A stretch of 64,000 bases of DNA from the NCBI RefSeq assembly GCF_006345805.1, contig NC_043007.1:8370001-8434000 (forward strand), in the 5' to 3' direction. A program made the translations under genes and the position numbers. The notes below the pieces were generated by a model. That model ran no database searches and was not told where the DNA came from. It was given only the letters and a program-made list of their open reading frames with translations. Positions 2,980-64,000 of the stretch are shown here, piece by piece (the stretch's first letter is position 1; each line of letters begins with the position of its first letter). This DNA comes from Octopus sinensis. Lineage: Eukaryota.

Positions 2980-3940
2980 GAGCTAAGAAATCTGCTTCCC
3001 AACCACATGGTTTTGGGTTCAGTCCCACCAAGTGGTACCATAGGCAAGTTTCCTGTACGAAAGCCCTGGGCCATCCAAAGGCTTGAGCGGATAGATTTTG
3101 TTGGCTGGAACGGAGAGAAACCTGTCGTGAGTGTGGGTGTGTGGATGCATTTGTACCTCCTTGTCTTGACATTGAGTGATAGCTGTAAACAAGAGTCACT
3201 ACCACACAAGCAGTGTCGTTTGTTTTTAATCTTCCATGGAAACATATCTGGCCTTGGGGAAATGTTACCTTAGAAACAAATTTTATTCTAGGTGTTGCTT
3301 CCTAATCATGTGGTCTTGGGTTCAGTTCTAATACAGAGCACCTTGCACAAGCATTTTTCATTACAGCCCCAGGCTGACCGAAACTATAAAGAAGCCTGCT
3401 GTGGCCAGGCTGGAGCACCACCTCAAAGGGTGTTAGTCGAAGAAATCAACTCCAGAACTTATTCTATTGGTCTGTTTTGACGAACCACTAAGTTACAGAC
3501 ATAAGCACACCAGTATTAGCTGTCAAGCGATGGCGGGACACACACATGCAAACACATACACACATGACAGGCTTCTTCCAGTTTCCATCTATCAAATCCA
3601 CTTACAAGACTTTGGCCAAGCTGAGGCTATTGTAGAAGACACATGCCCAAGGTGCCACGGAGTGGGACTGAGCCTGGAACCATTTGGTTGATAAGCAACC
3701 TTCTTACCACACAGCCTATATATATATATATATGTGCATTTGTGTCTGTTTTTGTCCCACATTATGGCTTGACAGTTGGTGTTGGTTTGGTTATGTCCCC
3801 ATAACCTCTCAATTTTGCAAAAGAGAGCAATAAAACAAATACCAGGCTTAAAAATAAGTAACTGAGGCCGATTTGTTTGACTGAAACCCTCCAAAGCATT
3901 GCCCCAGCATGGCCACAGTTGAAAGACTGAAACAATAGAT
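2980..3940. mobile_element. Cluster of tRNA-headed SINE copies and fragments
   Basis: Repeated gggttcagtccca...gcaccttgggcaag head and ccagcatggccacag...gactgaaac tail, also seen at about 5148, 8867, 22840, 29715 and 51655. Confidence 0.7.
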
Positions 3941-4011
3941 AAAAAAACATGTGTGCCCAATGAGAGGAGTTAAAGAAGCACCAGCAGAAAGCAACCTCCT
4001 ACCTTTCCCAC

Positions 4012-5082
4012 CTGGGGTCACGTCAGGCATGGCTGGGTCTTCCAAATTGTTAGCCGGGTCATCACAGTCAGAATCATTTTCTGATGCACAGGAGTCATCG
4101 CTGCCATCACTTTCGGCCAAGACATCATCATCAGCATCATCACTATTTACATCTGTGTCATTTTCATCCTCTTCTGCACCACTGTCATCGTTTTCCTCCT
4201 CCTCCCCATCTGCCTCAACACTGCCAGCTTCTTCCTCCACTTCCCCGTCCTCATCTCCCTCAACACTACCAGCTTCCTCATCTGCTGTATCACCACCAGC
4301 CTCTTCTTCCTCATCTGCCACATCACTACCAGCTTCTTCCTCCTCTGCTGTATCACCACTAGCCTCTTCCTCCTCATCAGCCACATCACTACCAGCCTCT
4401 TCCTCATCTGCTACATCACTTCCAGCTTCTTCCTCATCTGCCACATCACTACCAGCCTCTTCCTCCTCATCAGCCACATCACTACCAGCCTCTTCCTCCT
4501 CATCAGCCACATCACTACCAGCCTCTTCCTCCTCATCAGCCACATCACTACCAGCCTCTTCCTCCTCATCAGCCACATCACTACCAGCCTCTTCCTCATC
4601 TGCTACATCACTTCCAGCTTCTTCCTCCTCATCACTACCAGCCTCTCCCTCCTCCCCTTCTTCCTCATCTGCCACATCACTACCAACTTCTTCATCCTCT
4701 TCTTCCTCATCTGCCACATCACTACCAACTTCCTCCTCCTCTCCTACCACATCACTACCAGCTTCCTCCTCCCCTGCTACATCACTTCCAGCCTCTTCCT
4801 CCTCCCCTTCTTCATCAGCCACATCACTACCAGCTTCCTCCTCCTCTTCTTCCTCATCTGCCACATCACTACCAGCTTCTTCATCCTCATCTGCCACATC
4901 ACTACCAACTTCTTCATCCTCTTCTTCCTCATCTACCACATCACTACCAACTTCCTCCTCTTCTCCTACCACATCACTACCAGATTCTTCATCTGCATCC
5001 TCCTCTGCCTCTCCACTATCATCATGCTCTTCTGCTTCTTCATCCTCTGGCTCTGAATCCTCTTCAGTTTCCCCATCAGAAT
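4012..5082 (-). CDS. UTP25: UTP25 coding exon 4, about 357 aa acidic tandem-repeat exon
   Basis: ttttttag acceptor at 5083-5084; open frame HSDGETEEDSEP...(EEEAGSDVAD)n...DVTP, phase 1 to 1. Donor is either GTGGGA (exon ends 4012) or GTAGGA 9 nt further on (ends 4003). Confidence 0.8.
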
Positions 5083-5309
5083 CTAAAAAAAAGAAAAAGA
5101 AAAAAGACCATCAAAACCTGCAAAAATAAAGATTTCTGATGCACAAGGCATGGGTGTGGCTGTGTGGTTAAGAACTTAGCTTCCTAACCACATGGCATTT
5201 GGATTCAAACTTACCTGGCACCTTGGGCAAGTCTCTTGTCCTACAACCCCAGGAAAACAAAGCCTCGAGTGGATTTAGTTCACAGAAACTGAAAGATGCT
5301 CACCACACA

Positions 5310-18039: not shown

Positions 18040-20063
18040 GGATCTCTTCAGTTTTGCTTACAGATATTTTAATTATTTTTTAACTAAACAGTTTGAAACT
18101 TTGTATACAGCTGTAATTTCTCACACTGACCATGGTTTACTTTCAACATTTTTAACAAAATTTCATATTTTAGAAATTATTTCGTGTTAAAGTTGTTGTA
18201 TTTGGGTAATTTTAACCCATTAATGGTGTGTATTCACCTGAAGAAAGCTGCTGCTGCTTACACAAGTAATCGAAGAGGAACAACTTCTGGCTCATTTCTA
18301 AATGTCACCATCCTGTTCCATTTTATTTTTGTTTACTGCCTGTGCTGTATACGAGGGACGTTCAATAAATAATGCCCCTGACCCAGTTGCAGTTGTTTGA
18401 TCTAGCTGAAATTTTGCATGCGCAATTATTTATATCTCTATAGATTAAGTGGTAAATTACAGCTCTAAACTAATTGTGGTTTCTGATTTACAGGTGTTTG
18501 AACTGAGTCAAGTATGAAATGGAGCCTCTTAAGTGTCGAGCAGTGATCCGGTTTTTGTATTTGAAAGGACGCACACCACGGGAGACTTTTGATGAAATGA
18601 AAGTAACTTATGGTGATGATGCCCCATCATATGACCTTATAAAATGCTGGCATCGTAAATTCAAACATGGTCAGAACTCTGTGGAAACAGCTCCCAGATC
18701 TGGTCGCCCCCTTCTGCTATTGATGAGGCATCTGTCCGTCAAGTTGAGGCTGCCATTTTAGAAGATCGACGCATAACTATTTGTCAAATAGCCCATGAGG
18801 TCAAGATTAGTACCGGGTCTGTGGAAACTATCATTCATGACCATTTGCATATGCAAAAGGTGTCTGCCAGATGGATTCCCAGGTTGCTCACACCTTTCAA
18901 GAAGCAAAAACGTGTCGAGTGCTCGAGGATGAATTTGGAGATGTGCCAAGAAGATGAGTCAAAATTTTTCAAAAGACTGATTACACAGGATGAAACCTGG
19001 GTCCATCACTATGATCCAGAGACCAAAGCCTAGTCAATGCAGTGGAAGCACAGTGACTCACCTCCTCCAAAGAAGGCAAGGGTGCAGCCCTCCGCTGGCA
19101 AGGTCATGCTCACAGTCTTCTGGGACCAGGACGGAGTAGTGATGACAGATTTCCTGGCAAAGGGTACCACAATTACAGGAGCCTATTATGCTTCACTTTT
19201 GAAGAAATTAAGAGAAGCTATCAAAATCAAGAGGCGGGGCAATATCAGCAAAGGCATCCTCCTCCTGCAGGACAACGCTCCGGTTCACAACTCGCGTGTT
19301 GCCAAATCAGAAGCACAGGCATGCGGCTATGAACTCCTCTCCCATCTCCTTACTCTCCTGACCTTGCACCCTCTGAGTTTCACCTCTTCCCAGCCATGAA
19401 GTTGTTTTTGAAAGGAAAGCGTTTCCCAGATGATGCAGCTTTGATTTCTGAAGTCACGTCGTGGTTGGAGGACCAAGCTGAGGTCTTCTACAAAAACGGT
19501 CTCAAGAGCTGCATCAAACAATGGGAGAAATGCCTAACTCTGGGTGGTTCCTATGTAGAAAAAGACTAATAACTGCGCCAAGTTTTGTTGCTCAACTGCT
19601 ATGGGACGTGGGTCAGGGGCATTACTTATTGAACGCCCCTCGTATTACACTCCTTAGCTTTTTTTATTGCGTTTTGATTGCCTCTTTGCACAAGTGGTAA
19701 AAGTGCAAATGTATAAAGAGGCAATTGAAAAGCAAACAAAGAGTGTAGTATGCAACACAGGCAGTAAACAAAAATAAAATAGAACAGAGTGGTAACATTT
19801 AGTAGAGATGGCCCGGAAGATGTTCTTCGATTACTTTAGCAAACAGCAGCAGCTTTCTTCAGTTGATTACACATCATTGATTGGTCAAAATTACCCAAAT
19901 ACAACAACTTTAACATGAAATAACTTCTAAAACACGAAATTTTGTCAAAAGTGTTGAAAGCAAACATGTTCAGCATGAGAAATTACACCAATATACAAAG
20001 TTTAAAACTGTTTAGTTAAAAAAATAGTAATTTTAAAATCTGTGAGCAAAACTGAAGAGGAAC
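18040..20063. mobile_element. Foldback non-autonomous DNA transposon with an 8-bp TSD, interrupted by a mariner
   Basis: Arms 18040-18351 (plus 19645-19690) and about 19712-20063 are reverse complements. TCCAGCTG is duplicated at 18032-18039 and 20064-20071. Confidence 0.85.
18352..19642 (+). mobile_element. Full-length mariner transposon with a disrupted transposase
   Basis: About 35-bp TIRs (CGAGGGACGTTCAATAAATAATGCCCCTGACCCA) with a TA TSD. Transposase 18519-19569 has WIPRLL, TQDETW and QDNAPVH motifs, broken by frameshifts and a TAG at 19031. Confidence 0.95.
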
Positions 20064-29626: not shown

Positions 29627-30299
29627 TAAGTGTTTTCTACAAAGAAAGTAATGTGGAAGAGTGAAAGCTTTGGTATTTTACGCTTTCAAAATGCTTCTAT
29701 TTCCTGACACTATGGTTTTTGGGTTCACTTGGCATCTTGGGAAATGTCTTCTATTATTAGCCCTGGGCTGAACAAAGCCTTGAAAGTGAATTTGATAGAT
29801 GAAAACTAAAAGATACTGCTGGATGTATTTATAAACATACATATTCATAGAAACAAATAAAATGTGTTTTTCTCTCCTTGTGTTGACCTCATGTGATAGC
29901 TGTAAATGAGTGTCACCATCATACAAGCAGTGTCATTTGCTTCGAAAATATGCCCAGCCATGGTGAAATATTACTGTGCTTGGAAGTAGGAAGAGTATCT
30001 GGCTGCATGTTCAAACGATGGTAGTTGTTTTGAGATCTCTTAACCTTATAACAAAGAACATTTTCTCAGTTTCAATTCAAATGACGACCAGGTACATAAA
30101 TTATAATTTGTAATCATATTTTCACCAGCATGTAAAAAGCACCCTGTACACTCTGTAAAGTGGTTTGCATTGGGAAGGGCATCCAGCTGTGGAAATTGTG
30201 TCAAATGAGACAATTGGAGCCATGACAGCTCATGTCAAACCATCCAACACATGCTAGCATAGAAAATGAACATTAACTGATGAAGATCGAAATAGCTTC

Positions 30300-32010
30300 A
30301 GAGAATGGTATCCCCAAAACAGGAAACTGGGTCCTGTATGCTTGCAATAAGAGTGAACCAACCCAGCGGGGAGGGGTCGAAGAAAGAACGTGTGCGACCG
30401 TTCAAAGGACAGTGTTTCCGGTGCCAGGGTGCAGCAGAACGTCGGTAGCAGCGACTGCAACAATGAAAAGTGGCCGAGCTAGGAGCAGCGGAGAGGGGTC
30501 GAAGAAAGAATGTGTGCGACCGTTCAAAGGACAGTGTTTCCGGTGCCAGGGTGCAGCAGAACGTCGGTAGCAGCGACTGCAACAATGAAAAGTGGCCGAG
30601 CTAGGAGCAGCGGAGAGGGGTCGAAGAAAGAATGTGTGCGACCGTTCAAAGGACAGTGTTTCTGGTGCCAGGGTCCGCAACTGCGAGTCACCCAAGCCTG
30701 AGGTCATTTGCTACCAGAGACAGTGCTTGACTTCCAAGAGCTGAATGACCATGTATCATGTCATACAGGTGGCGAGGCCACAGATGTCTGTGAAGACACC
30801 TTGCGAAAGTGGAGGCAGATGACAGGGGCCTTCACGATCGTTGATTTGAAGTCGGCATTCCTACAGGTGCATGTGGCTGAGAAACTGTGGAAGTGCCAGC
30901 TTGTCAGGTATAAGGGCTGGATGTACTGTCTGACCAAGTTGGGGCTCGAGCTGAATTCAGCGCCAAAGATTATGGCAACAATTCTCAAAGCCATCCTGGG
31001 AAAAGTGGACAGAGTAAAAAAGGCCACCAAATTCGTACATTGATGATATTCTGATGGATGAAACCGTAATGCCAGCAATGGAGGTCATAGGCCACCTGAA
31101 GAGTTTTGGACTGATCGCCAAGCCACCAGAGGCAATGGAGGGAGGTGCTGCACTGGGCCTTAAGCTATGGAGAGACAAGGCCGGCGCGTTGGTGTTTCGG
31201 CGAGGGAATGAGATCCCAGAACTGGGCGCCAGCATGAGTAGACAGGAACTGTTCTCTGTGTGTGGGAAGCTGGTAGGACACTACCCGATTGCAGGATGGC
31301 TCCGGACAGCATGTAGCTTCATCAAGAGACGAGCCGAAGAAGTGAAGTGGAACGATAGAGTGGGGGAGAAGACAATCGACATGATGCAGGAAGTCTTGGT
31401 CAGAGTAAGAGCAGAGGATCCAGTGAGGGGTAGTTGGTATGTTCCCAAATCAAAGAGCGGGATTGTATGGTGTGACGCTAGTAGCATCGCAATAGAGGTT
31501 GTCTTAGAAGTGGGAGGCGTCATGGTGGAAGATGCAGCCTGGCTCAGGAAGACGGATGACTGCAGTCATACCAATGTGGCGGAGTTGGATGCCGTGTTGA
31601 AGGGGGTGACCTAGCCTTGAAGTGGGGGTTGCACACCATAGAAATCAGGACTGATTCGGCCATTGTACTTGGTTGGGTGACAGCAGTCATCACCAATGAG
31701 CGGAGGGTGCGGACCAAAGGGGCTGCAGAGATGCTGGTAAAGCGTCGATTGGGGATACTGCGTGAACTAACCACCGAGTTCAATCTGAAGCTGAGCGTGA
31801 TCTTTGTGCCTTCCGAGAAGAACAGGGTGGACGTCCTGACCAGGGTAAAGCGAGCCTGGTTGCAGGTGCCAGAGGATGCGGAGCAGGCTGTAGCTGCAGT
31901 ATGCCGTCTGAGTGACTCAGAGTTGCGGAGACTGCATACCATGCATCACATGGGTGTGGACAGGACATTGTTCCTAGCCAGAAAAGTTGACTCCGATGTA
32001 ACAAGATGGA
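30300..32010 (+). mobile_element. Degenerate Ty3/Gypsy-like LTR retrotransposon internal fragment
   Basis: GC-rich block with a gag CFRC knuckle remnant, RT (IVDLKSAFLQVHV; YIDDIL across a frameshift), RNase H (WCDASS...AELDAV...TDS) and an integrase HH remnant (HTMHHMG), in RT-RH-INT order. No LTRs identified. Confidence 0.82.
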
Positions 32011-32669
32011 GCGAGGGAATTTCAGTCGCTGGAATTCACTCGATAAATATTCTTGGAATCCCCTAACATAAAATGGCGGGAGGGTCACAGCTGGAAAACC
32101 TTTGCTCATAGGCCTGGTCTGGAGTTACACAACAACTGGAAGAAATCTTATAATTATTTCAGAAGATATAAAACAGAAACAAGAATTCGGTTTGAAAAAT
32201 GGTGAATCGAAACTAATTCTGAACATGAAGCAGCTTAGGCGACTGATTAAGAAGGATTTAAGTTTAATGATTGGCTTTTAACACTGACACAAGGCAATAA
32301 ATTTAGGGAGAGAGCGTTATTTATAGATTAAATCCATGCTAAATAATCGACTGTTTATTTTGAGGAAATCGTAAAAATGAAAAGTAAATTATAAAATGAG
32401 ATGAAAGGGAGGGGGGGAGCACGTGGCATTTTTTTCCTGTCAGAGATACTTTGGTTCGGTATTATACGGCACAGAAGTATTTCGCAAACGTAGTTGAAGT
32501 AGAAATCAATTAATTGTGCTAGTTATCGATATTTAGGAAGACAGTGTCACTAATTAATAAATTTAATAAACTAAATACCGAAATTAATTAACTGGAGTTT
32601 TGTTTTCCTTTTAACATTACGTTCACGTCGATATTGCGCATGCGTCAATACATACATACACGCGTGTTG

Positions 32670-32949: not shown

Positions 32950-33100
32950 TGCTGCGAACTTTTACTTTTTTTCCCCCCCTCTGCTATTAATTGCTTTTCT
33001 CAAACGGCAAAAGCGATTGGTCTTTTCCAAAGCGGACCAACCAATCGCGAGCCGTTATACATAAAGCTGTCAAATGACGTCATTAATCTTCCCCGATCGC
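32950..33100. promoter_or_regulatory. Bidirectional promoter shared by UTP25 and the RRM gene
   Basis: CpG-rich patch between divergent first exons. Inverted CCAAT boxes GCGATTGG (33013-33020) and CCAATCGC (33041-33048); palindromic CRE AATGACGTCATT (33073-33084). Confidence 0.7.
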
Positions 33101-33213
33101 CATTTCGAAGCACGTTGAGGCTTCGACTGAACGTCACTTTTCTGCGAAGAATCGTTGTTTTTTTTTTCCTCCGAAATCCTTACAACTTAGGATCTTAAAT
33201 ACAACTGACAGCG
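33100..33213 (+). other. Probable non-coding first exon of the RBM4/lark-like gene
   Basis: Lies just downstream of the promoter motifs and ends in a GCG|GTAAGA donor. The start position is approximate. Confidence 0.55.
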
Positions 33214-34417
33214 GTAAGATCTCATGTTTTTTCTTGAAAAGTTTCTTGCAAATATATTTACTTGGCGATATATAATTGCCTCGTCGTCCCCCGCCAAAAT
33301 CGCTACGACGATGATGATGATGATGGCGATTGTGTTGGTTCTGTTGCAGGAAGAAAAATTAAAAAACCCCCAGAAATACTCTGTCCATTGTTTGCCAGCA
33401 TCGAATAAAGAAGACGATGCAAGACCCGTTTAACTGCCTGACGAGACCCGTTCCCTCTTTTCTCCCGACCGAAGAAGCCTTTCCCTCTTTTCTCTCTTCT
33501 TTCTCTCCTTCGTCCCGTTCGCCATTATTTTTTTTCTTCTTTCTTTTAAGAAAAAAAAACTAGAAACAAAAAATGATTCATATTTCATAATTAACCTATA
33601 AAAAATCATTGAAACACATCCCTGCTGTCCTCATTTTCAATCCTCAATCATTTTCCTGCATCGAAATTCATTAAACACCGAATAAATTACAAAATATTTC
33701 TCTAATATTCAACACCAAAAACCATCTGAAATTGATTTCTTTTGTCCTTTGAAATAGAAATCCGTCATTTTCACTTTTATTTTCTCTTCATTATTTCGAC
33801 TCCTAATTATTCCTTATATATTTCACTCCTTCACACAACATCGAAGATCAATAATTACAGTTTGCCCTAAAATCAAAGCTAAATCATTCTGACACAGTTT
33901 CACATTTCTCTCTTCTTGTTTCAATCTGAGGATTTCTTCACATCTCAAAGGAAATTATTTATCGAATACAATAAAACACGATATATTATTATGTAACCTG
34001 CACAATGTACTTTTAATCTGCTACGATTTGTTCTAAATTCATTGAGACGTTGATTTATATTAATCTATGTCGACGAAAATTGTGTTTTATCTCTTTAGAC
34101 ATTTCTTCTGGGTTAAGCACAAAGAAATGAGGCATGTGCGGTTTTCTTGGCATTAATTTCTTGCTGTTTCCCAGATAAATATTTTGCTTTTTATTCAGAA
34201 ATTTCTCATGAAAATAAAAAAAAAAAAATTTCATTTTATGTTTAGGTTTATAAAAAAAAAAAGATAATCTCTGTTTGTATTAAAATCGGTTGTTTAAGAT
34301 GGAGAAGGAAGAAGATCGGGGGGGGGGGCAGTGGAGATTTTAGTTGGAATTCAATAGAAATGTTATTTCTCGACGATTCTAATCGAGAAATGCATTGAAG
34401 TGAAGGAAACCGTGGAA

Positions 34418-34532
34418 AGGCGGCGGCTGCAGCGGTGGTGGTGGCTGCAGCGGCGGTGATGGTGGTGGTGGTGGCTGCAGCGGCGGTGATGGTGGTGGTG
34501 GTGGTGGCTGCAGCGGCGGTGGTGGTGGCGGC
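34418..34532. repeat. GC-rich 30-33 bp tandem repeat built on (GGT/GGC)n
   Basis: Four gctgcagcgg...ggtggtggt units. Confidence 0.85.
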
Positions 34533-34696
34533 ATCGATGCGCGGGAGGCGACATTTGAGTGAGAAACATCTTTGGCTCCCAGCACGCATGCGCTCCTTCT
34601 CTTTTTCTCTCTCTCTCTCTTATCAGCTTCTTGTTCTGTCTTTCTTTCTATCTCTGATCGATACCGACCCGTGTCTCGATTTCTCCTCCTTCACAG

Positions 34697-34754
34697 CATC
34701 ATCGTCGTCTACCGTACTCGCTTGCCTGCCATACCTTTAGTAATTTAGTGCCAG
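34697..34754 (+). other. Probable 5' UTR exon of the RBM4/lark-like gene
   Basis: Long pyrimidine tract with a tcacag acceptor and a CAG|GTGAGC donor; no ATG. Confidence 0.55.
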
Positions 34755-35253
34755 GTGAGCCTTGATCGAGCGTAACACATCCGACCAGTGACCTTTTAAG
34801 CGAGACCATTGTCCTTTCTTACACAATTAAGCTGACCAGTGCGGCGAACCTTGGCTACTGTTTCTAGCGTATCATGCGACTGCTTTCGATAGCGCGGTTT
34901 CTTATTAAATGAGAATTTCCATCAAATTCTGAGATGTTCCTGGTTGTTGATTTGTAAGTAGACCGTCCCCCGATGATCTAAGGTTTGACTCCTACGAGAA
35001 GGGCGACCATGTAGAGGTTACCTCGTGCCTGCCCGCTGCATGCTTCATGCATGTGAATACATGTGGATTAGTCATTCGGGTTGCGTCGGAAAGTGAAATA
35101 GTTTTGTCCTGATGAAGCTGACAAGTGTAGGCATTTCCAACAGAATCCCCCCCCTCACCTTTTTTTTCTCGTCTGAGATATAAATAAGATCGCTAAAGGT
35201 CCACAAATATCTCCTGCTTTCAGTGATATATTTTATGTTTTTATGCTTTTAAT

Positions 35254-38272: not shown

Positions 38273-38361
38273 GATTATTTCTGTGTTTTTTATTTATTTG
38301 TTAATAAACGATGCTGCGATGTGTAATTGATTCTTTGTTCTCCTTTCAGCAGCCGCTAACA

Positions 38362-38484
38362 ATGCCTACAAAAATATTCGTTGGTAACGTGAACCCCACC
38401 ACCAAAGCAGAACAATTACGGGTTTTGTTCGAGAAATATGGCAAAGTCACCGAGTGTGACATCATAAGAAATTATGCTTTTGTG
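38362..38484 (+). CDS. RBM4/lark-like RNA-binding protein, coding exon 1 (N-terminal half of the RRM)
   Basis: [10 protein letters not shown]...[19 protein letters not shown] contains RNP2 and RNP1 of the lark/RBM4 type. NAGNAG acceptor (cagcag, 38347-38352) and GTAAGC donor. Confidence 0.92.
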
Positions 38485-38925: not shown

Positions 38926-39298
38926 CAATGGTTCCCAGCCCGTTTATTTAAATGAGTTTTCCCACGGACCCCTTTTAATATGCTTATCCTTCATCATCAT
39001 CATCGTTTAACGTCCGTTCTCCATGCTCGCATGGGTTGGACAGTTCGACTGGGGATCTGGGAAGCCAGAGGGCTGCACCAGGCTCCAGTCTGATCTGGCA
39101 GTGTTTCTACAGCTGGATGCCCTTCCTAACGCCAACCACCCCGTGAGTGTAGTGGGTGCTTTTTACGTGCCAGGCGAGGCTGGCATCGGCCACGTTCGGA
39201 TGGTGCTTTTTTACGTGCCACCGGCACGGAAGCTAGTCTGGGTGGCGCTGATATAAAATTTTGAATTTAGTTCACGGACCCCAGGTTGGGAACCACTA
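38926..39298. mobile_element. hAT (Charlie-like) MITE with a nested RTE-UTR repeat
   Basis: CAATGGTTCCCA ... TGGGAACCACTA termini; degenerate 8-bp TSD gcataggg/gcttagag; retroposon inserted at about 38992-39250. Confidence 0.65.
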
Positions 39299-40985
39299 GC
39301 TTAGAGGTTCCTCTGTTGTGTTGTGAGATCTGTCAGAGGATAACGTTTCCGTTAAAGCCCTTCACCAGGTGAGAAGCGTGTTGGAAAGGTATATTTAGGC
39401 CTACTAATGTAGTGTGTGGAGGAAAGGCTGTCTGAAATGTAACTCTACATATGAACCAACAAGACCAGCCTCCCGTGCAGAAATTTCCACCCCTTTTTGT
39501 TTTTTAGACATTTTGATGTGCTCATTGCATTTTGTTGGAAAGGAACATGCATGCATTGGAGCTGTGCATTGAAACGCTCAAGTTTTCTAAATATCTTAGG
39601 CGTCTGTGTTTCTTGAACTGCTAAAAACAGGTCCTGGATCTGTTCAGAGTTGAATAACTGCATGCATATATCTTGCCACTTATCTTCTGTCTCACTCATA
39701 TTACGGAAAATGCCTTTGGTTAAAATTAAACATAAAATGCACCATCCGAACGTGGCCGATGCAAGAACACCCCAACTGGCTCTCGTGCCAGTGGCACGTA
39801 AAACGCACTATCTGAACGTGATCGATGCCAGGTCTGCCTAACTGACTCCTGTGCCAGTGGCATGTAAAAAGTACCCACTACACTCTCAGAATGGTTGGCG
39901 TTAGGAAGAGCATCCAGCTGTAGAAACAATTCCAGATCAGATTGGAGCCTGGCACAGCTGTTGACTCTCCAGACCTGTCAAACCGTCCAACCCATGCCAG
40001 CATAGAAAACGGACGTTAATAATGATGCTGATGATAGGCAACAATTGCCTTTTCTTTACAACTTCAATGAAACCTGAATAAAGGAAATACTTTAAAAAGA
40101 AATTAGTCCCTATGTGTTATAAAGAGGTGACCAGAAGAGCTGGTGATGGGAAGGGCTTTGGAAGTCTGCCTTAGAAAACCCATCCAACATGTGACAGCAT
40201 GGAAAAGTGACTTGTGCTTCTTCTTACATTAAAAGAGAACTTTTTATCGATCTTCAAAGCTTGTACTAAACTCTAAAATTGAACAAACTGGCACAAATGA
40301 TACTTTGTTCAGCCTCAGATCACAATGCCTTTAAAAAGTAGGGAAGGATACATTGTTTAATGCAGTCCCACATCTGGTATGCATTCAAAAAATGTGTAAA
40401 CCAGATGATTGTAGCTGATTGGTTAAAGGGGCTTTTTGATCAGAGCTGGCATGGAATTAAACAATGATAACACTAGTCTACACAATGCCAGTTTTGTATT
40501 CTGTGCTTTCTCACTTCAGTAGGAGCAGGTAGGTACAACAAACAACTGGTGTCTCATTGAAAAAAAAAAAACCCTACTGTATATGCAATATTGTATACAT
40601 CCTTTGAAATCAGTAGAAAATGAATCCTTCCTATTGATAACTTGGGAAAATAGTTTGAATTTTATGCGAAACACATTACACAACAGGTGTTGTGAAGAAC
40701 AGCAGCACAGCCCCAGATGTCATCCTGGTGTATATTCTTTGAGTAAACAAAGTTAAAAATAGAAGCAGTAATGGGGTGCTATATTTAAATAATGGAAGAA
40801 TATAGCACTTGGCATGATGGAAAAGTGAAGGCAGTTGATTCTAAGATTTGAAGAAGGATGGGGGTGAGAGGATATGTTTCTACTTGTTCCATCAGGCATT
40901 GGTTGAAGTTTTGAAAGCTTGGAGATGATTTTGAATGGAATTCCATAAAATTAGGATGGATCAGTTATGAGTTAAACATGTTTAA

Positions 40986-43763: not shown

Positions 43764-43847
43764 CACATGGAATATGACTCTGAGGCAGTTCAGGCTATCA
43801 GACAGCTGAATGGATACTCAGTCTGCAATTCAAGAATTCGAGTTGAG
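43764..43847 (+). CDS. RBM4/lark-like coding exon 2 (C-terminal half of the RRM)
   Basis: ttcatttag acceptor; HMEYDSEAVQAIRQLNGYSVCNSRIRVE; GAG|GTAAAA donor; phase 0 to 0. Completes the RRM. Confidence 0.92.
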
Positions 43848-50200: not shown

Positions 50201-51300
50201 TGCCTATATATGCGCATTGCATGTGCATATGTAATATGCATGTTTTATATATATATATATATGTGTGTGTGTGTATATACATGTATATATACATATATAT
50301 ATATGTGTGTCTGTATATACATGTATAACTTGAATTCATGCATATATAGGCATTAATGATGGGGAGGGGAAGCAGCTCATTGAACGATTGGTTTTGAATT
50401 AAGCAAAGGGTCTATAAAATTTCCACTATCTTATTCAATTCTCTTTTTAATTCTATTTCTAATTAGTTGCTTCAAAATATAATAACTGTAGAATGAGAAA
50501 TTGTAGGTGGTTATTCATTCCTTTATTCATGGTTATAATTATTTTTGGAATGTTTTAAGCAAATTCAAAAAAAAAAATGAAAAGAAAAGAAATAATTTGT
50601 TGATAGATTTTTATAGCCCTTATAATGCCATATATATTAACAAATCAAAAAGATTACTCCATAGTCTATTTTAAAAAATTATATAAAATATTTTCTGGCT
50701 ATGTTTATAGATATTTAATTCAATATTAAAAGACTCTTGAATCTATTTCATCAAACATAATGCTATATAAAAAATTCTGTTTAAAAAAAAAAAATTGGTG
50801 CAATTTTATTGGAAACTTAAGGCATACATTTTAAATCTTGTAATATATATTTCAGAAAAAGGGATATAAAATTTATTTCACTGCATATACAAACTCTCTC
50901 TGTGGGTGTTTGTATCTATGCATGTAAATATATATATATATATATCTATCTATCTATATATATATATATATATATTGTGTACGTATATACATACACAAAT
51001 TGAGATTAAAGGTATATATCCGTTACCATTTATGGTTTTACTTTTTTTAAAGTATTGAAAGTAGCTTGTGTTGTATATATATATATATATAAATATATGT
51101 GTGTATAAATACTCCTTGGAATTGGCCGATAGATTTAATAAACGCACTTTACTTTCCAAAGTAGCTATTTGTTTAGATGGCAAATTGTTGTTGTTGTTGT
51201 TGTGCAAATTCATACCACCTCCGTGTTTACCAGTGTTAGGGCCAATCCCCAAATTCAGCCGTAACGCTTCAGAGTACTAAATTGCTGCCAGCTTTTCAAG

Positions 51301-51417
51301 GACGGACCGTTATTTAGTTTGCGCCTGTGTCATCGTGAATAGATTCTGCCAAGCCCCCTGACGTAAACAAGAATAGCATTCCCAAGGACAAGGAAGTCCC
51401 CAGCGAGCGTCATAAAG
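51301..51417 (+). other. Candidate stop-containing alternative exon A (DGPLFSLRLCHRE*)
   Basis: tactaaat branch-like site, ttttcaag acceptor and AAG|GTATGT donor. TAG at 51340-51342, with stops in all three frames. Confidence 0.6.
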
Positions 51418-52184
51418 GTATGTTAAAGTGGTTTTACGTTCTGCAGATATTTTTGCGTGCGTTCCTTTTTACTAGTTTATGATTGAATAGAGAGAGTGTG
51501 CTCTGTCTGTGTGTTGTGTTGTTTTGTGAGAATCTGCTCTGAAATGTCAAGAGTGCCAACCTGCCAATGTTGTTGATTTGTGACATAAAGTTTCTTGGTA
51601 TGTGTGCTTGAGTGAATGTGCATGTGTATAAAAGCTTCAATTAATGTCTGTATGGTGCAGGCAAGGCCAAATGACGAAGCAGTTTTGTTTCAGAAGTATT
51701 TGGTCTTGGGTTCAATCTCACTGCACAGCACCTTGGACAAATTTCTTCTACCATAGCTTTCGGTTGACCCAAATCTTGTGAGTGAAATTGGCCAGGTAGA
51801 AACCAAAAGCCTGTCAGATGGATGGGACTTTTTGAAAGGTCAACCATGTTGCTATATCATTGATTCCGCCTGAGGATTACAGTGAATGTACAAGACTCAG
51901 AACCTTACATGATCTTATGGTCAATGACTGTGTTGTCCAGTTGATCAAAGAACTGAAATCAATTCTTGTTTAAACCAAGAGAGGAAACATTTGCTATTTT
52001 ATACACGTGTATATTTTAGTTAATGCCTTTTTTTTTTTTTTTAATGAAATTTGAAAAGCTTCTTAGAGTTAACTTTTAATTTTTTTTTTTTTTTTTTCAA
52101 AATTCAAATTGGGTGAACTTTCGTACCAAAGTGAAGTTTCAGCTCACTGAATATTATATTTGGTGTGTTCTCCAATCCATTCAG

Positions 52185-52255
52185 TACTACTGTTTCCGCT
52201 GCGTAAACAATTTGTACAAACATCTGCGACGTGTTGATCAGCATCGTTCAGTTGC
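52185..52255 (+). other. Candidate cassette exon (YYCFRCVNNLYKHLRRVDQHRSV)
   Basis: ccattcag acceptor and GTAAGT donor; 71 nt, open in phase 0 and ends in phase 2; locally CpG-rich. Confidence 0.45.
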
Positions 52256-53609
52256 GTAAGTTAGAATATGGTGATCTCCTCGTCCTCTTTTAAAACTATT
52301 CGGTCTACACACTGCGTTGTTAAGCGTGTTTCCCACAACTTGGAGCATTGCCCGTTCTATGGTTTCAAAAACAGACAAAATCGAAATGCGTTATCTATTC
52401 GTTCTTAATTTTATTGACCGAAAATCATCGATTAATTTTTCAAGAAGCATCTCTTTACTTTTGATAATTTGTCAGTTTTCTAAAATTGAAAATAAGGATT
52501 AAACCTAATGCAAATACAGCTGAACTGATAATTATCTAATTTTCAAGATTAATTAATTAGGATGTTGGTAATTCATGAAAGCTGCTGCTGCTCATTTTTG
52601 TAGTTTTATTTTACTTAATGTTGGAAGCTCCACAGAATTGAACCAACTCACTTCTGTTGTGTCCTATATTTCTTATATCATTGATATTGTTTCTTTTTTC
52701 AGCTCATTTCATTTTTCACTTATTTAAAAAAAAAAAAAAAAAAAAAAAGAAATCTGGTCGTGTTGGATTGAGAATCTACAATTTCTTTCGCTATCTGCTT
52801 TTTGTGGAAGATGTTTTAGGCTTTAGACTGAGGTTATCTTTATATTTACTAACATTTTTGAGAATTGATTTTTAAATATCATTGCAAATATTGAAAAGAA
52901 TTTTAAGGAAATGAAAATTTGTCAAACCAAACATTGCGAAGAGAATGGTGATGATTTTCTACGTTATCAACATTTATTTGATTGGAGAGTCATTAGAAGT
53001 GTTCAAGGAATGGAGAAACTAAGCATTCTGTGCTTTTATCCATCATCTCAGATTGAGGAAGATAAAGTGTTTTCACTTGGGTTATGAGCTAGCAAAATCA
53101 GACAAAAAAACCCCCAAAAAAACCGGCAGCCATGCTTTCTCTGTCCTTGTCTTAGATGATGTGCAAAATCCTGAAATGTTGGATTCTTCAATCCTTATAA
53201 CAATTGACCCTATTTAACTCTCCTGCAAATACCAAAATTGTTTCTTTGTATCATCCTTTGGTATCTTTTGTCTTTTAATGAATTTTCTGATTCCCCGCTT
53301 CCCCCCATAATTATATATTTCTTTCTGGCAGACCACTTAGTGCCTTGTGATATTTTAAGCATTCCTACAGTCTCAATTTAGCTCGACCAGTTGCCACCTG
53401 CCTTTTTTTTCTTTTTCCCTTTTTTTCTCTCATTTTTTTTACCTTTTAAGCCATTCTTCATTACCATTATTGAATAAATGGTTGAAGATGCTGTGTATGT
53501 ATATATATTTTTATATATACACACTTGCAAATTTTATTGTTTTATAGTTGTCTGCTTTAGTCTTGCTTCATTTTAGTTGCTAAAGCAATTTTTTTTATTT
53601 CTTTTCCAG

Positions 53610-53729
53610 GATGGCCCCTTGCATATTGGAACATCTGATTATTCTGTATCAGCAGATTTGGCGACGCCTTCATATTTTAAGAACCACATAGTCATGCCAC
53701 TCAAGAGTATAGCATCCAGTATCAAATAA
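53610..53729 (+). CDS. Candidate alternative terminal exon B (DGPLHIGTSDYSVSADLATPSYFKNHIVMPLKSIASSIK*)
   Basis: Strong tttatttcttttccag acceptor, 39 open codons, and a TAA that overlaps AATAAA (53725-53730). Confidence 0.55.
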   Translation, partial: DGPLHIGTSDYSVSADLATPSYFKNHIVMPLKSIASSIK

Positions 53730-54172
53730 AGTATTTTAGACTTGTTGAGTCTTTGAGAATCTTATTCCATTATTGTATTCTGTTCTGTAATTCAATTGCT
53801 AAAATGTGTGGGGTAAAATTGAACATTTTACTGTTTTCTTGTAACATTTTAATCGTCATGATTTAAAGGTCTAAAAATATCAAACACCTCTTCAATGGGT
53901 AGCAAACACTGGTTTTATGTAACATTCCTATACGGTGTCTTAATATTCCTGGTCTTCAAAATCTGTACCTCTTAATTCACTCGGTTTACACTTTGTTGCA
54001 TGCTTTTTGCAATTGAGGATTTTTACAAGTTTTTTCTTATGTTGTGTGCGTGTGTGAGTCACAAAAGAAACCAATTTTATCCATTAAAAAATGCTATTTC
54101 AATGGTTTAGAATGGATTTCTTAATCATTCTGTGTAGGGAATTCTTGCTGATTTCTTGCATTTTCCTTTCAG

Positions 54173-54231
54173 TTGTCACATGGTAAAAAGACAGAAAATG
54201 CTGACAAAAAACCAACAGATAGAGCATTTCC
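54173..54231 (+). CDS. RBM4/lark-like coding exon 3 (long isoform)
   Basis: ttttcctttcag acceptor and GTGAGT donor; LSHGKKTENADKKPTDRAFP, phase 0 to 2. Gives the usual RRM end VE-LS. Confidence 0.85.
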
Positions 54232-55125: not shown

Positions 55126-55587
55126 ACCAAGAAAGCCTTTGGGTCAAGGAGGACTATCCAATTTTAACAGTCGTTTCACACCCGGCAGCTTTAACAACAA
55201 CAACAACAACAACTGGTCAGACAACTATGACCAAAGGCCACGGTTTCGTGACAACTTCCCAGATTATTATGAAAGGGATGGACGAATGCCATCTGTTCCA
55301 GACAGGTATCCAGGTGGGCCGATGTCCGACAGAATGGGATCCATGCAAGACAGGTACCCTGCACAAGGACCACCAAGAGATCGCATGATGCCTCCACAAC
55401 ACTCAGAAAGATTTCCTTCCTCCCAGCCTGACAGAATGAGACCCTCCAGTCCATTTGATAGGAGAGGAGCACCGCCGCCTCCTCATGCCATGAGAGACAA
55501 CTACTATATGGACAGAGACCCTTACTACCGTGAGAGAAGTCCTCTTTCTCGGATGCCTCCTGATTATTATGATAGAAATATGAAACG
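55126..55587 (+). CDS. RBM4/lark-like coding exon 4 (R/D/P/Y/M low-complexity region)
   Basis: A phase-2 entry continues into ORF 55139. Contains DPYYRERSP-type motifs typical of lark tails; CG|GTCAGT donor. Confidence 0.85.
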
Positions 55588-55697: not shown

Positions 55698-56381
55698 AGA
55701 CTACCCACCTTCTCCATATCAGAATAATGATAACATGGGTGGTTTCAAGAGAGACACCCCGATGGGTCGAGACATGGGTATGCGATCGATGGGCATGGAT
55801 GCTCCAGTCCGAGACCAGATGCCATCTTCTCGTGGTGGAATGGAACCAATGAGGAGAGACAATATGGTTGGCAATAGGGGTCCTGGTCCTATGGGGGTCG
55901 GTCGAGATTCCTACAGGCAAGGAGATTCAATGGACCATCACAACATGGGAAATCGACAGATGGGTTCAATGATGCGAGACCGTCAAGAGATGGGTGGTGG
56001 AGGAGGTGGCATGAACAACTCTGGCGGCTATAACAGCTACAATGGTCAGCAACAGGGTGGTGGTGGTGGCGGCGGCGGTGGTGGGGGAGGTGGTTACGGC
56101 ATGAACCATTCTTACAACAACTTCAATAATGACCGATCGAGATCTGGTCCTGGTATGGACAATAACTACAGGGAGAACTACAGAGATAACAACTATAGAG
56201 AGAATAATTACAGGGAGAACAACTACCGAGACAACTACCAAGGAATGGGGGGAGGAGGAGGAGGCGGGGTGGTGGTGGTAATATGGGGGGTGGTGGAGGT
56301 GGAAGACAGCAAATGGGCTCGCAAAAAAAGGGTAACTTACCTGACCAAAGTTTTTTACAGACAGGTCCAATATTTTTTTAA
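55698..56381 (+). CDS. RBM4/lark-like terminal coding exon (G/M/N/R-rich prion-like tail), with a probable 1-nt assembly deletion near 56266-56269
   Basis: ttccttacag acceptor, phase 2. As assembled the frame ends at 56388 with an atypical VVVVIW tail. Adding one G gives GGGNMGGGGGGRQQMGSQKKGNLPDQSFLQTGPIFF* ending at 56381. Confidence 0.8.
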
Positions 56382-58127
56382 AATATGAATCCTTTCTCAG
56401 ATTATAGATACTACTAATAATGATAATAATAGTGGTTCTTTGAAAAGTAAAAAAAGAAACATCTTCACCTGGTATTTTTGTTGGTGTTTATAAAAAAAAA
56501 CAAAGAAAAACATATTTTTAAGTATCAAGATTTCATTGAGATTAATATTGTTTCCCAAGTGTTAAATACGAACAAAATACTTTTAACTCCTCATCCAAGT
56601 TTGTTCACTATACATAACATACCATCACAGACTGCATCAGTCAGTTTCTTTTCCCATCCCACCCCACATTTTATCCCCTACTTAGTATAATTCCCACACA
56701 TCTTTAACTGGATTATATATTATACAAATGAAATAGAAACAAAAGATTCCACACTTTGTTCTTTTCTTTTCAAAGTCTTGTCAATTCACTCTTGTAGGAT
56801 AAGCTTTCTATAGATATCTTCCATTGTGTGTATTTGGTGTTTCTTAAGGGCCCAGTGCTTTGAATTGTCTTCACTGAAACCATTTTTGATCCTATCTGAA
56901 TCCTAACCATTGGAGGGCAGATCTTCATTTTCCAACTCCACTTTTCTCATTTCAACTTTCAATCAACATCCACACTCTAATTTCATTTCTTTGGTATTCC
57001 AACCTATTTTCATAATTCATTACTAAATTTATCGTCTTTTTTTTTTTTTTAACCTTGTTTTTCTTGATACCTCATATGCTGGTTTCCTTTTATTTCAGTT
57101 GATTCTTTAGAATTTTTGTGATGTGCTCAAATTAAATATGTTCTAAATAATTTATTAGTGTGACATAATTTCAACATCATGTACCTAATTGCTGCCTCAA
57201 TTCTGCGAAAGTTTCTGACTTCTGTCTCGATTTAACAAAGGTAACTAGAAAACTGATTTCATGTGTTTCTCTGTTGAAATTGTTTGTGATATTTTAAGGG
57301 TATAGGTATTAGTGATTGCTTTATTTGTCTTTATTATTTACAGTGTTATTTTTAATTCCCATAAACTGTTAGGCCTAAACCCACACTGATTTAATTTTGA
57401 ATTTCAAATGTGATTAGAAGTTGTTGTTAGTTGATGTCTCTTTTCAAATCATCTTTCATACCTCATAAATCTGTTAGCTCAGTGCAGACTTTAGCTTTCT
57501 CCATTGAGAATGAAGAATTAACCATAAAATATGACACATGCTTCCATATACTCACTGATCAATGTTTTGATTGTCATTTAAATTTTATTTCCATTCCTTA
57601 GTTTTTTTCTTGTTTTATTTTTTAAGACAATGTCCCTTTTGCTTGTGATTATACCCAATGATTCACTTCCAGCAAAATAAAATCACCTTTCCCTATTTGT
57701 CTTCCCCCTTCTTATCAGTATTAAGGTCTGCCGTTGTTTTCTATTTTGCTTTGAAATGTTTCTTGTGTAGAGAAAGATAAAAGTCCTTTTATAGGATCTC
57801 TATTCTGACAGTTCTATTCTTAATGTTCTCCGACTCTACCCGTGTGGAAACCTGCTCAATGTACTGCCTGCATTTCTTCATTCCATGTTTCCAATGTCTA
57901 TCACTTAAAACAGAGCCATTACAAACTTTCAAAAAAGGAAGAAAAAAAAAGGTGGCAAAGCAGAGTGAACAAAAACCTTTTTTTTAATCGTTATTATTAT
58001 TTTACAAATTGTAATTTTAATATTGAGAGAAAAAAAAAATGGAAAATATTTCCCCACCTTTTTTGTGTTTGATATTTCTTAGCTGTAAGTTACCAATGTC
58101 TTAGATGTCTGTAAAATTTTTTTTAAA

Positions 58128-59322: not shown

Positions 59323-59641
59323 TCATCATCATCGTTTAACGTCCGTTTTTCCATGCTGGCATGGGTTGGACTGTTTGTCCGAGGACTGGCAAGCCAGGAG
59401 GCCACGCCAGGCTCAAATCTGATCTGGCAATGTTTCTACTGCTGGATTCCCTTCCTAACGCCAACCACTCCAAGAGTGTAGTGGGAGCTTTTTACATTCC
59501 ATTGGCACAGGGGCTAGTCAGGTGGCACTGGCATCAATCATGTTTGGATAGTGCTTTTTATGTGCCGCCAGTCAGGGAGTATTGGCATCGCCCACGTTCG
59601 GATGGTGCTTATTACGTGCTACTGGCATGACAGCCAGTCAG
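59323..59641 (-). mobile_element. RTE 3' UTR-type repeat that hosts the satellite
   Basis: Starts catcatcatcgtttaacgtccg and grades through diverged subrepeats into the array. Confidence 0.8.
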
Positions 59642-62600
59642 GGCACTGGCATTGACCATGTTCGGATGGTGCTTTTTATGTGCTACCAGCACGGGAGCCA
59701 GTCAGGGCACTGGCATTGGCCACGTTCGGATGGTGCTTTTTATGTGCTACCAGCATGGGAGCCAGTCAGGGCACTGGCATTGGCCACGTTCGGATGGTGC
59801 TTTTTATGTGCTACCAGCATGGGAGCCAGTCAGGGCACTGGCATTGACCATGTTCGGATGGTGCTTTTTATGTGCTACCAGCATGGGAGCCAGTCAGGGC
59901 ACTGGCATTGGCCACGTTCGGATGGTGCTTTTTATGTGCTACCAGCATGGGAGCCAGTCAGGGCACTGGCATTGGCCACGTTCGGATGGTGCTTTTTATG
60001 TGCTACCAGCACGGGAGCCAGTCAGGGCACTGGCATTGGCCACGTTCGGATGGTGCTTTTTATGTGCTACCAGCACGGGAGCCAGTCAGGGCACTGGCAT
60101 TGGCCACGTTCGGATGGTGCTTTTTATGTGCTACCAGCATGGGAGCCAGTCAGGGCACTGGCATTGGCAACGTTCGGATGGTGCTTTTTATGTGCTACCA
60201 GCACGGGAGCCAGTCAGGGCACTGGCATTGGCCACGTTCGGATGGTGCTTTTTATGTGCTACCAGCACGGGAGCCAGTCAGGGCACTGGCATTGGCCACG
60301 TTCGGATGGTGCTTTTTATGTGCTACCAGCATGGGAGCCAGTCAGGGCACTGGCATTGGCCACGTTCGGATGGTGCTTTTTATGTGCTACCAGCACGGGA
60401 GCCAGTCAGGGCACTGGCATTGGCCACGTTCGGATGGTGCTTTTTATGTGCTACCAGCACGGGAGCCAGTCAGGGCACTGGCATTGTCCACGTTCGGATG
60501 GTGCTTTTTATGTGCTACCAGCACGGGAGCCAGTCAGGGCACTGGCATTGGCCACGTTAGGATGGTGCTTTTTATGTGCTACCAGCATGGAGCCAGTCAG
60601 GGCACTGGCATTGGCCACGTTCGGATGGTGCTTTTTATGTGCTACCAGCACGGGAGCCAGTCAGGGCACTGGCATTGGCCACGTTAGGATGGTGCTTTTT
60701 ATGTGCTACCAGCACGGGAGCCAGTCAGGGCACTGGCATTGGCCACGTTAGGATGGTGCTTTTTATGTGCTACCAGCACGGGAGCCAGTCAGGGCACTGG
60801 CATTGTCCACGTTCGGATGGTGCTTTTTATGTGCTACCAGCACGGGAGCCAGTCAGGGCACTGGCATTGGCCACGTTAGGATGGTGCTTTTTATGTGCTA
60901 CCAGCATGGGAGCCAGTCAGGGCACTGGCATTGTCCACGTTCGGATGGTGCTTTTTATGTGCTACCAGCATGGGAGCCAGTCAGGGCACTGGCATTGACC
61001 ATGTTCGGATGGTGCTTTTTATGTGCTACCAGCATGGGAGCCAGTCAGGGCACTGGCATTGGCAACGTTCGGATGGTGCTTTTTATGTGCTACCAGCACG
61101 GGAGCCAGTCAGGGCACTGGCATTGGCCACGTTCGGATGGTGCTTTTTATGTGCTACCAGCACGGGAGCCAGTCAGGGCACTGGCATTGGCCACGTTAGG
61201 ATGGTGCTTTTTATGTGCTACCAGCACGGGAGCCAGTCAGGGCACTGGCATTGTCCACGTTCGGATGGTGCTTTTTATGTGCTACCAGCACGGGAGCCAG
61301 TCAGGGCACTGGCATTGGCCACGTTAGGATGGTGCTTTTTATGTGCTACCAGCATGGGAGCCAGTCAGGGCACTGGCATTGTCCACGTTCGGATGGTGCT
61401 TTTTATGTGCTACCAGCATGGGAGCCAGTCAGGGCACTGGCATTGACCATGTTCGGATGGTGCTTTTTATGTGCTACCAGCATGGGAGCCAGTCAGGGCA
61501 CTGGCATTGGCACGTTCGGATGGTGCTTTTTATGTGCTACCAGCACGGGAGCCAGTCAGGGCACTGGCATTGGCCACGTTCGGATGGTGCTTTTTATGTG
61601 CTACCAGCACGGGAGCCAGTCAGGGCACTGGCATTGGCCACGTTCGGATGGTGCTTTTTATGTGCTACCAGCATGGGAGCCAGTCAGGGCACTGGCATTG
61701 GCCACGTTCGGATGGTGCTTTTTATGTGCTACCAGCACGGGAGCCAGTCAGGGCACTGGCATTGGCCACGTTCGGATGGTGCTTTTTTGTGCTACCAGCA
61801 TGGGAGCCAGTCAGGGCACTGGCATTAACCATGTTCGGATGGTGCTTTTTATGTGCTACCAGCATGGGAGCCAGTCAGGGCACTGGCATTGGCCACGTTC
61901 GGATGGTGCTTTTTATGTGCTACCAGCACGGGAGCCAGTCAGGGCACTGGCATTGGCCACGTTCGGATGGTGCTTTTTATGTGCTACCAGCATGGGAGCC
62001 AGTCAGGGCACTGGCATTGGCCACGTTCGGATGGTGCTTTTTATGTGCTACCAGCATGGGAGCCAGTCAGGGCACTGGCATTGGCCACGTTCGGATGGTG
62101 CTTTTTATGTGCTACCAGCACGGGAGCCAGTCAGGGCACTGGCATTGGCCACGTTCGGATGGTGCTTTTTATGTGCTACCAGCACGGGAGCCAGTCAGGG
62201 CACTGGCATTGACCATGTTCGGATGGTGCTTTTTATGTGCTACCAGCATGGGAGCCAGTCAGGGCACTGGCATTGGCAACGTTCGGATGGTGCTTTTTAT
62301 GTGCTACCAGCACGGGAGCCAGTCAGGGCACTGGCATTGGCCACGTTCGGATGGTGCTTTTTATGTGCTACTACCAGCATGGGAGCCAGTCAGGGCACTG
62401 GCATTGGCCACGTTCGGATGGTGCTTTTTATGTGCTACCAGCACGGAGCCAGTCAGGGCACTGGCATTGGCCACGTTCGGATGGTGCTTTTTATGTGCTA
62501 CCAGCACGGGAGCCAGTCAGGGCACTGGCATTGTCCACGTTCGGATGGTGCTTTTTATGTGCTACCAGCATGGGAGCCAGTCAGGGCACTGGCATTGACC

Positions 62601-64000
62601 ATGTTCGGATGGTGCTTTTTATGTGCTACCAGCATGGGCAGCCAGTCAGGGCACTGGCATTGGCCACGTTCGGATGGTGCTTTTTATGTGCTACTAGCAC
62701 ACGGGAGCCAGTCAGGGCACTGGCATTGGCCACGTTCGGATGGTGCTTTTTATGTGCTACCAGCATGGGAGCCAGTCAGGGCACTGGCATTGGCCACGTT
62801 CGGATGGTGCTTTTTATGTGCTACCAGCATGGGAGCCAGTCAGGGCACTGGCATTGGCCACGTTCGGATGGTGCTTTTTATGTGCTACCAGCATGGGAGC
62901 CAGTCAGGGCACTGGCATTGGCCACGTTCGGATGGTGCTTTTTATGTGCTACCAGCATGGGAGCCAGTCAGGGCACTGGCATTGGCCACGTTCGGATGGT
63001 GCTTTTTATGTGCTACCAGCACGGGAGCCAGTCAGGGCACTGGCATTGGCCACGTTCGGATGGTGCTTTTTATGTGCTACCAGCACGGGAGCCAGTCAGG
63101 GCACTGGCATTGACCATGTTCGGATGGTGCTTTTTATGTGCTACACCAGCATGGGAGCCAGTCAGGGCACTGGCATTGGCCACGTTCGGATGGTGCTTTT
63201 TATGTGCTACCAGCACGGGAGCCAGTCAGGGCACTGGCATTGGCCACGTTCGGATGGTGCTTTTTATGTGCTACCAGCATGGGAGCCAGTCAGGGCACTG
63301 GCATTGGCCACGTTCGGTTGGTGCTTTTTATGTGCTACCAGCATGGGAGCCAGTCAGGGCACTGGCATTGGCCACGTTCGGATGGTGCTTTTTATGTGCT
63401 ACCAGCACGGGAGCCAGTCAGGGCACTGGCATTGCCATGTTCGGATGGTGCTTTTTATGTGCTACCAGCATGGGAGCCAGTCAGGGCACTGGCATTGGCC
63501 ACGTTCGGATGGTGCTTTTTATGTGCTACCAGCACGGGAGCCAGTCAGGGCACTGGCATTGGCCACGTTCGGATGGTGCTTTTTATGTGCTACCAGCATG
63601 GGAGCCAGTCAGGGCACTGGCATTGGCCACGTTCGGATGGTGCTTTTTATGTGCTACCAGCATGGGAGCCAGTCAGGGCACTGGCATTGACATGTTCGGA
63701 TGGTGCTTTTTATGTGCTACCAGCATGGGAGCCAGTCAGGGCACTGGCATTGGCCACGTTCGGATGGTGCTTTTTATGTGCTACCAGCACGGGAGCCAGT
63801 CAGGGCACTGGCATTGGCCACGTTCGGATGGTGCTTTTTATGTGCTACCAGCACGGGAGCCAGTCAGGGCACTGGCATTGGCCACGTTCGGATGGTGCTT
63901 TTTATGTGCTACCAGCACGGGAGCCAGTCAGGGCACTGGCATTGGCCACGTTCGGATGGTGCTTTTTATGTGCTACCAGCATGGGAGCCAGTCAGGGCAC
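59642..64000. repeat. 64-bp satellite array (about 68 copies, runs off the window)
   Basis: Unit GGCACTGGCATTGGCCACGTTCGGATGGTGCTTTTTATGTGCTACCAGCAYGGGAGCCAGTCAG; period measured as 64 (59642 to 59706). Confidence 0.97.

Follow-up and report, generated by a model that had tools for sequence, protein, structure and literature searches.

Two duplicate-like candidate exons predicted to truncate an octopus lark/RBM4-like protein behind its RRM

Why should one intron of an octopus gene for an RNA-binding protein hold two candidate exons that both begin with the residues D-G-P-L immediately behind a 3' splice site, and what would splicing to either of them do to the protein? The question was addressed in a 64-kb window, that is, the whole stretch of DNA that was analysed, and all positions are those of the window. 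Elsewhere in the window, a CpG-rich promoter-like region was observed at 33000-33220 and 34260-34760, with a minus-strand exon that starts around 33210 and the end of a plus-strand first exon around 34755; it is likely a head-to-head promoter. Broken retrotransposon-like pol frames, which we take to be reverse transcriptase and RNase H-like, were found at 30277-32066, and broken transposase frames, presumably mariner-like, at 18507-19399. A long tandem repeat at 3848-5139 gave an acidic frame of 420 codons on the minus strand. A large tandem array with a GC-rich unit and open frames occupied 59550-64000, and related pieces were seen in intron 2 near 39000-40000.

The exon frames and Pfam matches described a lark/RBM4-like gene with a single RRM and, behind it, a long region of low complexity:

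38350..38484, plus strand: exon 2, coding, with the ATG at 38362; its 41 codons cover the RRM's first half (Pfam RRM_1), and it is spliced to 43764 in 4 of 4 runs

43764..43847, plus strand: exon 3, which completes the RRM (Pfam) and ends RIRVE in phase 0; its 3' end was seen as a loose end before exon 4

54173..54231, plus strand: exon 4, the productive acceptor (LSHGKK...), from loose ends and matches to proteins P0003 and P0019

55126..56388, plus strand: exons 5 (55126-55587) and 6 (from 55698), from spliced joints

The RNA evidence consisted of assembled contigs from six of 24 runs. Five of these (X1, X5, X8, X14 and X18) were spliced-RNA runs, their RNA nature being judged from spliced joints or loose ends; such contigs drop rare forms and cannot show RNA ends. 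The joints between exons 2 and 3, 4 and 5, and 5 and 6 were present in all four runs of the first contig set. The joint between exons 3 and 4 was found as loose ends in three of the four runs of the second set, X17 being without it, and exon 4 was flanked by exon 3 before it and exon 5 behind it as loose ends in X5, X14 and X18. The contigs of X17 differed from the window at few positions and were too close to it to gauge conservation. At position 53038, contigs of X1, X5, X14 and X18 carried A>G, which may be an allele, an assembly error or editing. Small insertions and deletions were also seen in RNA contigs near 56250-56267, and the frame at 56250-56390 finished in an odd tail that differed from that of P0004; the Gly-rich repeat there may have been assembled with an erroneous frameshift.

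The first-pass annotation had taken the locus for an RNA-binding protein gene, and this assignment held. The single RRM was closest to RBM14/RBM4, the nearest solved structures being RBM14 and RBM4-type RRMs (E 3e-18 to 2e-15), and the named relatives were 'RNA-binding lark-like' of O. vulgaris (P0001) and 'RNA-binding protein lark' of O. bimaculoides (P0019). The gene thus shares the RRM subfamily and the database name lark with Drosophila Lark and mammalian RBM4 and RBM14, as far as the available part of PMC3602429 describes them. Unlike Lark and RBM4, the octopus protein has one RRM (one RRM_1 stretch in P0019 and one in P0004) and no CCHC knuckle (Pfam zf-CCHC was absent from P0019, P0004 and the frames of exons 5 and 6). 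Because the second RRM and the zinc knuckle are both missing, the gene product is not a canonical Lark/RBM4 member. Splicing-regulator activity has been shown for Lark and RBM4 (available part of PMC3602429), and by inference the octopus product would act like a lark-type RNA binder. An intronless lark-type paralog with one RRM, a CCHC knuckle and a 294-codon open frame was observed in the G000:C12:67385948 region (L003/L016) and is possibly a retrocopy.

The donor of exon 3 opens a phase-0 intron of 10,325 nt, in which both candidate exons lie:

51301..51417, plus strand: exon A, candidate poison cassette of 117 nt (39 codons) ending KSPASVIK, with donor AAG/GTATGT, from sequence

53610..53729, plus strand: exon B frame, 39 open codons (DGPL...KSIASSIK) and then TAA, from sequence, gene model and contigs

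The intron is in phase 0 behind RIRVE, and therefore DGPL is the correct frame for A and B, both of which are in frame with the upstream exon. Exon A starts GAC GGA CCG TTA at 51301, preceded by ...CTTTTCAAG, and exon B starts GAT GGC CCC TTG at 53610, preceded by ...CTTTTCCAG, so the reported twin starts, each right after a 3' splice site, were confirmed. In the 64-kb window, AG followed by D-G-P was found at A and B only, and of the 7,394 AGs on its two strands these two alone precede DGPL. Given that B is real, 0.0006-0.004 further AG+DGPL sites were expected among the 456 other intron AGs. When any pair over the 457 intron AGs was allowed to match, one other pair (LTFN) also shared four residues. 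The first-pass annotation had stressed that every codon is synonymously different, which is true of the four codons and carries no weight: four differing codons are expected in 16-23% of cases for unrelated codons of the same residues, and for this reason the synonymous differences do not support duplication.

We favour, at a probability of roughly 0.6, the reading that A and B are two old copies of a 39-codon, frame-preserving exon, each of which would now truncate the protein after the RRM. Copy A would have kept its donor and gained stops, becoming a poison cassette whose mRNA would be degraded. Copy B would have lost the G/GT of its donor, leaving a TAA inside AATAAA; splicing to B would give a reading frame of 108 residues with the RRM alone, on an RNA continuing into exon 4. 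With its premature stop the B-spliced RNA would likely be degraded, and perhaps it would sometimes end at the AATAAA. Both A and B would divert transcripts from the full-length protein, and by analogy this diversion is probably a negative feedback of the protein on its own pre-mRNA. The Pfam RRM (residues 5-67) is kept whole in both short isoforms and the remainder is lost. Absent from both is the Arg/Asp/Pro/Met/Gly low-complexity C-terminal region encoded by exons 5 and 6, in whose frames no Pfam family was matched.

Exon B ends, as had been noted, in a TAA (53727-53729) fused to a poly(A) hexamer (AATAAA at 53725-53730). Its acceptor is probably used, as contig starts and a gene model indicate. 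Three of the five spliced-RNA runs had a contig start at the B acceptor, at 53608: it was preceded by 28 foreign letters in X8 and in X14 and by 3 in X5. In X14 the exon 4 contig opens with 28 letters from the 3' end of exon 3, the same geometry as in the B contigs. A contig of X1 crossed 53608 unbroken, and X18 had no cover over the B reading frame. The O. vulgaris gene model P0001, in a cluster of one, consists of exon 2, exon 3 and B (108 residues), with a tail identical to that of B. From the contig geometry and this model we infer the joint of exon 3 to B. The RNA evidence also covered the sequence downstream:

53730..54172, plus strand: sequence between the B stop and exon 4, from contigs running on to 54200

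Single contigs passed through the AATAAA of B to 54200, inside exon 4, in four of the five runs (X1, X8, X5 and X14). On the simplest reading, splicing to B uses an acceptor upstream of that of exon 4, which lengthens exon 4 to 622 nt and leaves the stop 502 nt short of the following junction; cleavage at the AATAAA is possible.

The first-pass annotation had divided the roles between a degraded A and a stable short isoform from B. Given the same duplication and a degraded A, B could be used mainly as a genuine terminal exon with cleavage near 53745, which would yield a stable and functional 108-residue RRM-only protein. The AATAAA overlapping the stop of B, the gene model P0001, the 39 open codons with a GC of 0.41 vs 0.31 on both flanks, and the peptide match at both ends, which suggests past selection on the protein, all agree with this, as does the early polyadenylation described for frog and zebrafish SRSF5 poison exons in the available part of PMC4379411. 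Against it, the contigs of X1, X8, X5 and X14 are unbroken through the hexamer, the intron has AATAAA 18 times, and 60 of the 457 AGs precede at least 39 open codons. Because 18 of the 271 intron TAA triplets sit inside AATAAA (and 32 of 271 have an AATAAA not farther than about 30 nt away), the hexamer of B alone is weak evidence for a poly(A) site. In protein searches the B tail was found in one real record only, P0001; a search of representative proteins with the tail gave P0001 plus two repeat-rich chance matches, and among 70 proteins no further one had DGP following its RRM. We therefore hold a mainly terminal B as a tentative possibility. A relic of a second RRM in B was rejected (400 of 2,000 shuffles scored as well), and a Pfam YorP match on B was below the family cut-off.

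As for the duplication itself, exon A measures 39 codons from acceptor to donor and exon B 39 codons from acceptor to stop, both in phase 0; the first stop falls exactly at codon 40 after two of the 457 intron AGs. At codons 32-39, A reads KSPASVIK and B reads KSIASSIK, with six of eight residues identical in register. With DGPL fixed, this match of the last eight residues was reached by 2 of 200,000 shuffles of A, and six of eight in any in-register window of eight by 7 of 200,000; six of eight at the end was reached at 0 of 63,615 window positions, and the C-terminal likeness in any frame and offset by 7 of 6,000 shuffles, all these tests being post hoc and incompletely independent, as the match had been spotted by eye before testing. 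The score of the global nucleotide alignment of A and B without the first 12 nt, a test likewise made after the match had been noticed, was reached by 3 of 3,000 shuffles. A likely donor remnant was also recognised from the sequence at the end of B:

53724..53732, plus strand: AAA/TAAAGT, likely a dead donor that agrees with the consensus at 6 of 9 positions, lies in register with the donor of A and shares bases with the stop and the AATAAA

This site misses the core G/GT only, and nine of the 271 intron TAA precede AGT. Between the ends the two exons did not resemble each other: none of the 27 residues at codons 5-31 was identical. The identity count over codons 5-39 alone was modest, being reached by 4,138 of 200,000 shuffles, and the BLOSUM score was unremarkable (rank 7,791 of 63,640). 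A frameshift-tolerant alignment of the middle was not significant (703 of 1,500 shuffles as good), and local DNA alignment of the A and B regions was no better than that of random intron pairs (188/279). Both matched serines switch codon family (TCC/AGT and AGC/TCC), which counts against duplication because chance yields such switches more easily than descent. Origin of A and B from a repeat was rejected, each being single-copy in the genome. The old exon duplication proposed in the first-pass annotation is supported by features that it had not named, namely the equal length, the in-register C-terminal match, the donor remnant and a weak DNA alignment, and not by the synonymous differences; homology of A and B is quite probable.

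If there was no duplication, B would be an alternative 3' splice site of exon 4, A an independent poison exon or conserved element, and their matches coincidental. The unrelated middle, the serine switches and LTFN as a chance four-residue pair fit such an origin, and, according to the available part of PMC4379411, poison exons can arise again and again and do not depend on coding constraint. However, DGPL (0.0006-0.004), the last eight residues (2/200,000), the equal length and the donor remnant would all have to coincide, and we regard separate origins as rather unlikely.

Under the favoured duplication, copy A would be the cassette that kept its donor; by sequence it has a moderate acceptor and a donor. 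With 8 of 9 consensus positions the donor scored highest among the 626 GTs of the intron, and the four constitutive donors that were scored reached less, 6-7 of 9. The acceptor was a weaker AAG with 71% pyrimidines vs 94% for B. Stops were found at codons 14 (TAG, 51340-51342) and 22 (in-frame TAA, 51364-51366), and the annotated stop upstream of a strong donor proved correct, the TAG lying exactly 75 nt before AAG/GTATGT at 51417/51418. Under the NMD rule, an in-frame stop has to precede a junction by more than 50-55 nt; the 75 nt exceed this distance, the reach of the rule in invertebrates being doubtful and its validity in molluscs uncertain. Exon A would be a poison cassette with a degraded mRNA. 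Among the contig features listed, from which rare forms are dropped, a joint or contig start at A was found in 0 of 5 spliced-RNA runs, and contigs crossed the splice sites of A unspliced. Two blocks of the intron stood out by their CpG content:

51210..51470, plus strand: CpG-undepleted, GC-richer single-copy block around exon A, from CpG counts and one genome match

52180..52420, plus strand: second CpG-rich single-copy block, 15 CpG vs 2.0 expected, with one match in the genome

The block around A held 13 CpG vs 2.2 expected (observed/expected 0.95 vs 0.22 upstream). In octopus, genes with high expression are methylated in their bodies (available part of PMC9476566), so that the CpGs kept at A, within a depleted intron, suggest constraint or a local lack of methylation; with CpG retention as a proxy, the block may be constrained. 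The second block is possibly a regulatory element or a third small exon (52185-52255); an exon drawn there would have 71 nt and donor C/GTAAGT and would shift the frame. No RNA structure was found locally at A (z 0.1-0.5), and A-block C pairing likewise gave none. Rfam matches were sub-threshold, lay on microsatellites only and were rejected.

Exon A might also never be spliced, being a conserved intronic element or a dead exon, with B alone as an alternative splice site. Its weaker acceptor would agree with this, and so would the second CpG-rich block: because that block has no strong donor, CpG richness need not mean an exon. The best donor of the intron lies exactly 39 codons downstream of the A acceptor, however, and A resembles the spliced stop tail of a relative (see below); we consider an unspliced A doubtful.

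Cephalopods show heavy recoding by A-to-I editing. It is very improbable, however, that an ancient coding cassette was duplicated, that its copies were made different off-switches, A by stops and B by its donor becoming a stop plus poly(A) signal, and that the peptide match persists because A is sometimes read to its end through recoded stops. Least probable of all is the full translation of A as an in-frame 39-residue insert with both stops recoded by editing or read-through: the 117 nt preserve the frame, and recoding would account for the match to B, which follows the two stops, but three edits would be required, the duplex partner of the stop region was no better than shuffles (34/40 as good), local structure was lacking, no A-to-G at the stops was found among the contig differences listed, and recent stops, or a sequence frozen once it had become regulatory, are the likelier answers to a match behind stops. 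If recoding were true, editing would decide in octopus whether the message is degraded or yields an RRM carrying an insert of 39 residues.

The favoured reading was also compared with other species. A relative whose protein is 77% identical to that of O. bimaculoides has a 77-residue isoform (P0012; 6 contigs) that ends RIRVE-TLPVFLER; this relative is likely another cephalopod. Conservation of DGPL in orthologous introns had been proposed as a check, and the outcome was divided: a stop isoform recurs at the same junction, but its tail begins with TLP and not with DGP. A truncating event at this RRM junction is thus common to the octopus and a more distant relative, whereas DGPL is not. In peptide likeness to the tail of the relative over 456 AG sites, A was third (tied) and B 33rd. 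At the DNA level A came only to 61/457 and was not singled out. A candidate for the tail at 47364, from back-translation, was rejected (17 of 300 shuffles as good). No cephalopod DNA was found in the metagenome contigs (12 distant loci).

Several known systems resemble this arrangement. Drosophila Rbp1, an SR protein, reportedly has a tested feedback via alternative 3' splice sites; there, as is said, and in the octopus gene, an alternative acceptor behind the RRM removes a low-complexity effector domain. The octopus gene shares with the unproductive splicing of SR and other RNA-binding proteins, as described for SRSF4/5/6 in the available part of PMC4379411, alternative exons with stops in a gene for an RNA-binding protein, RNA that contains neighbouring intron sequence, a probable local sequence constraint, a possible competition with early polyadenylation, and an exact event that turns over between lineages. 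Unlike SRSF4/5/6, it is of the lark/RBM4 type and not an SR gene, and NMD and feedback would apply to it only by analogy. In SRSF4/5/6 poison exons coding constraint is not expected (same part of PMC4379411), whereas the octopus pair is duplicate-like and has kept a peptide match. Exons 3a and 3b of U2AF1 are likewise equal-length homologous exons in one splicing-factor intron with a link to NMD (available parts of PMC6547761 and PMC9013439). They are, however, 68% identical coding alternatives, one of which is always included (available part of PMC6547761), while the main octopus mRNA skips both A and B, the likeness is at the ends only, and both carry stops. Self-regulation of RBM4 is not described in the available parts of PMC3602429 or PMC8501971. 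Within the library searched, no paper on unproductive splicing of a mollusc lark/RBM4-type gene was found, nor any case of such a gene in which two probably duplicated exons are both left out of the main mRNA and have been disabled in different ways.

Tandem duplication of exons and the unproductive splicing of genes for RNA-binding proteins are both already known, and it is their combination that appears to be new. If the favoured reading is right, the intron would hold a feedback splicing switch born from a duplicated coding cassette and not from raw intron. Its two copies would have been inactivated differently, and in one of them the sequence would still show how a donor turned into a stop and a poly(A) signal. 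Unproductive splicing would thereby be extended to a mollusc lark/RBM4-type gene and, as the regulatory logic is well known, the gain would be a worked evolutionary example.
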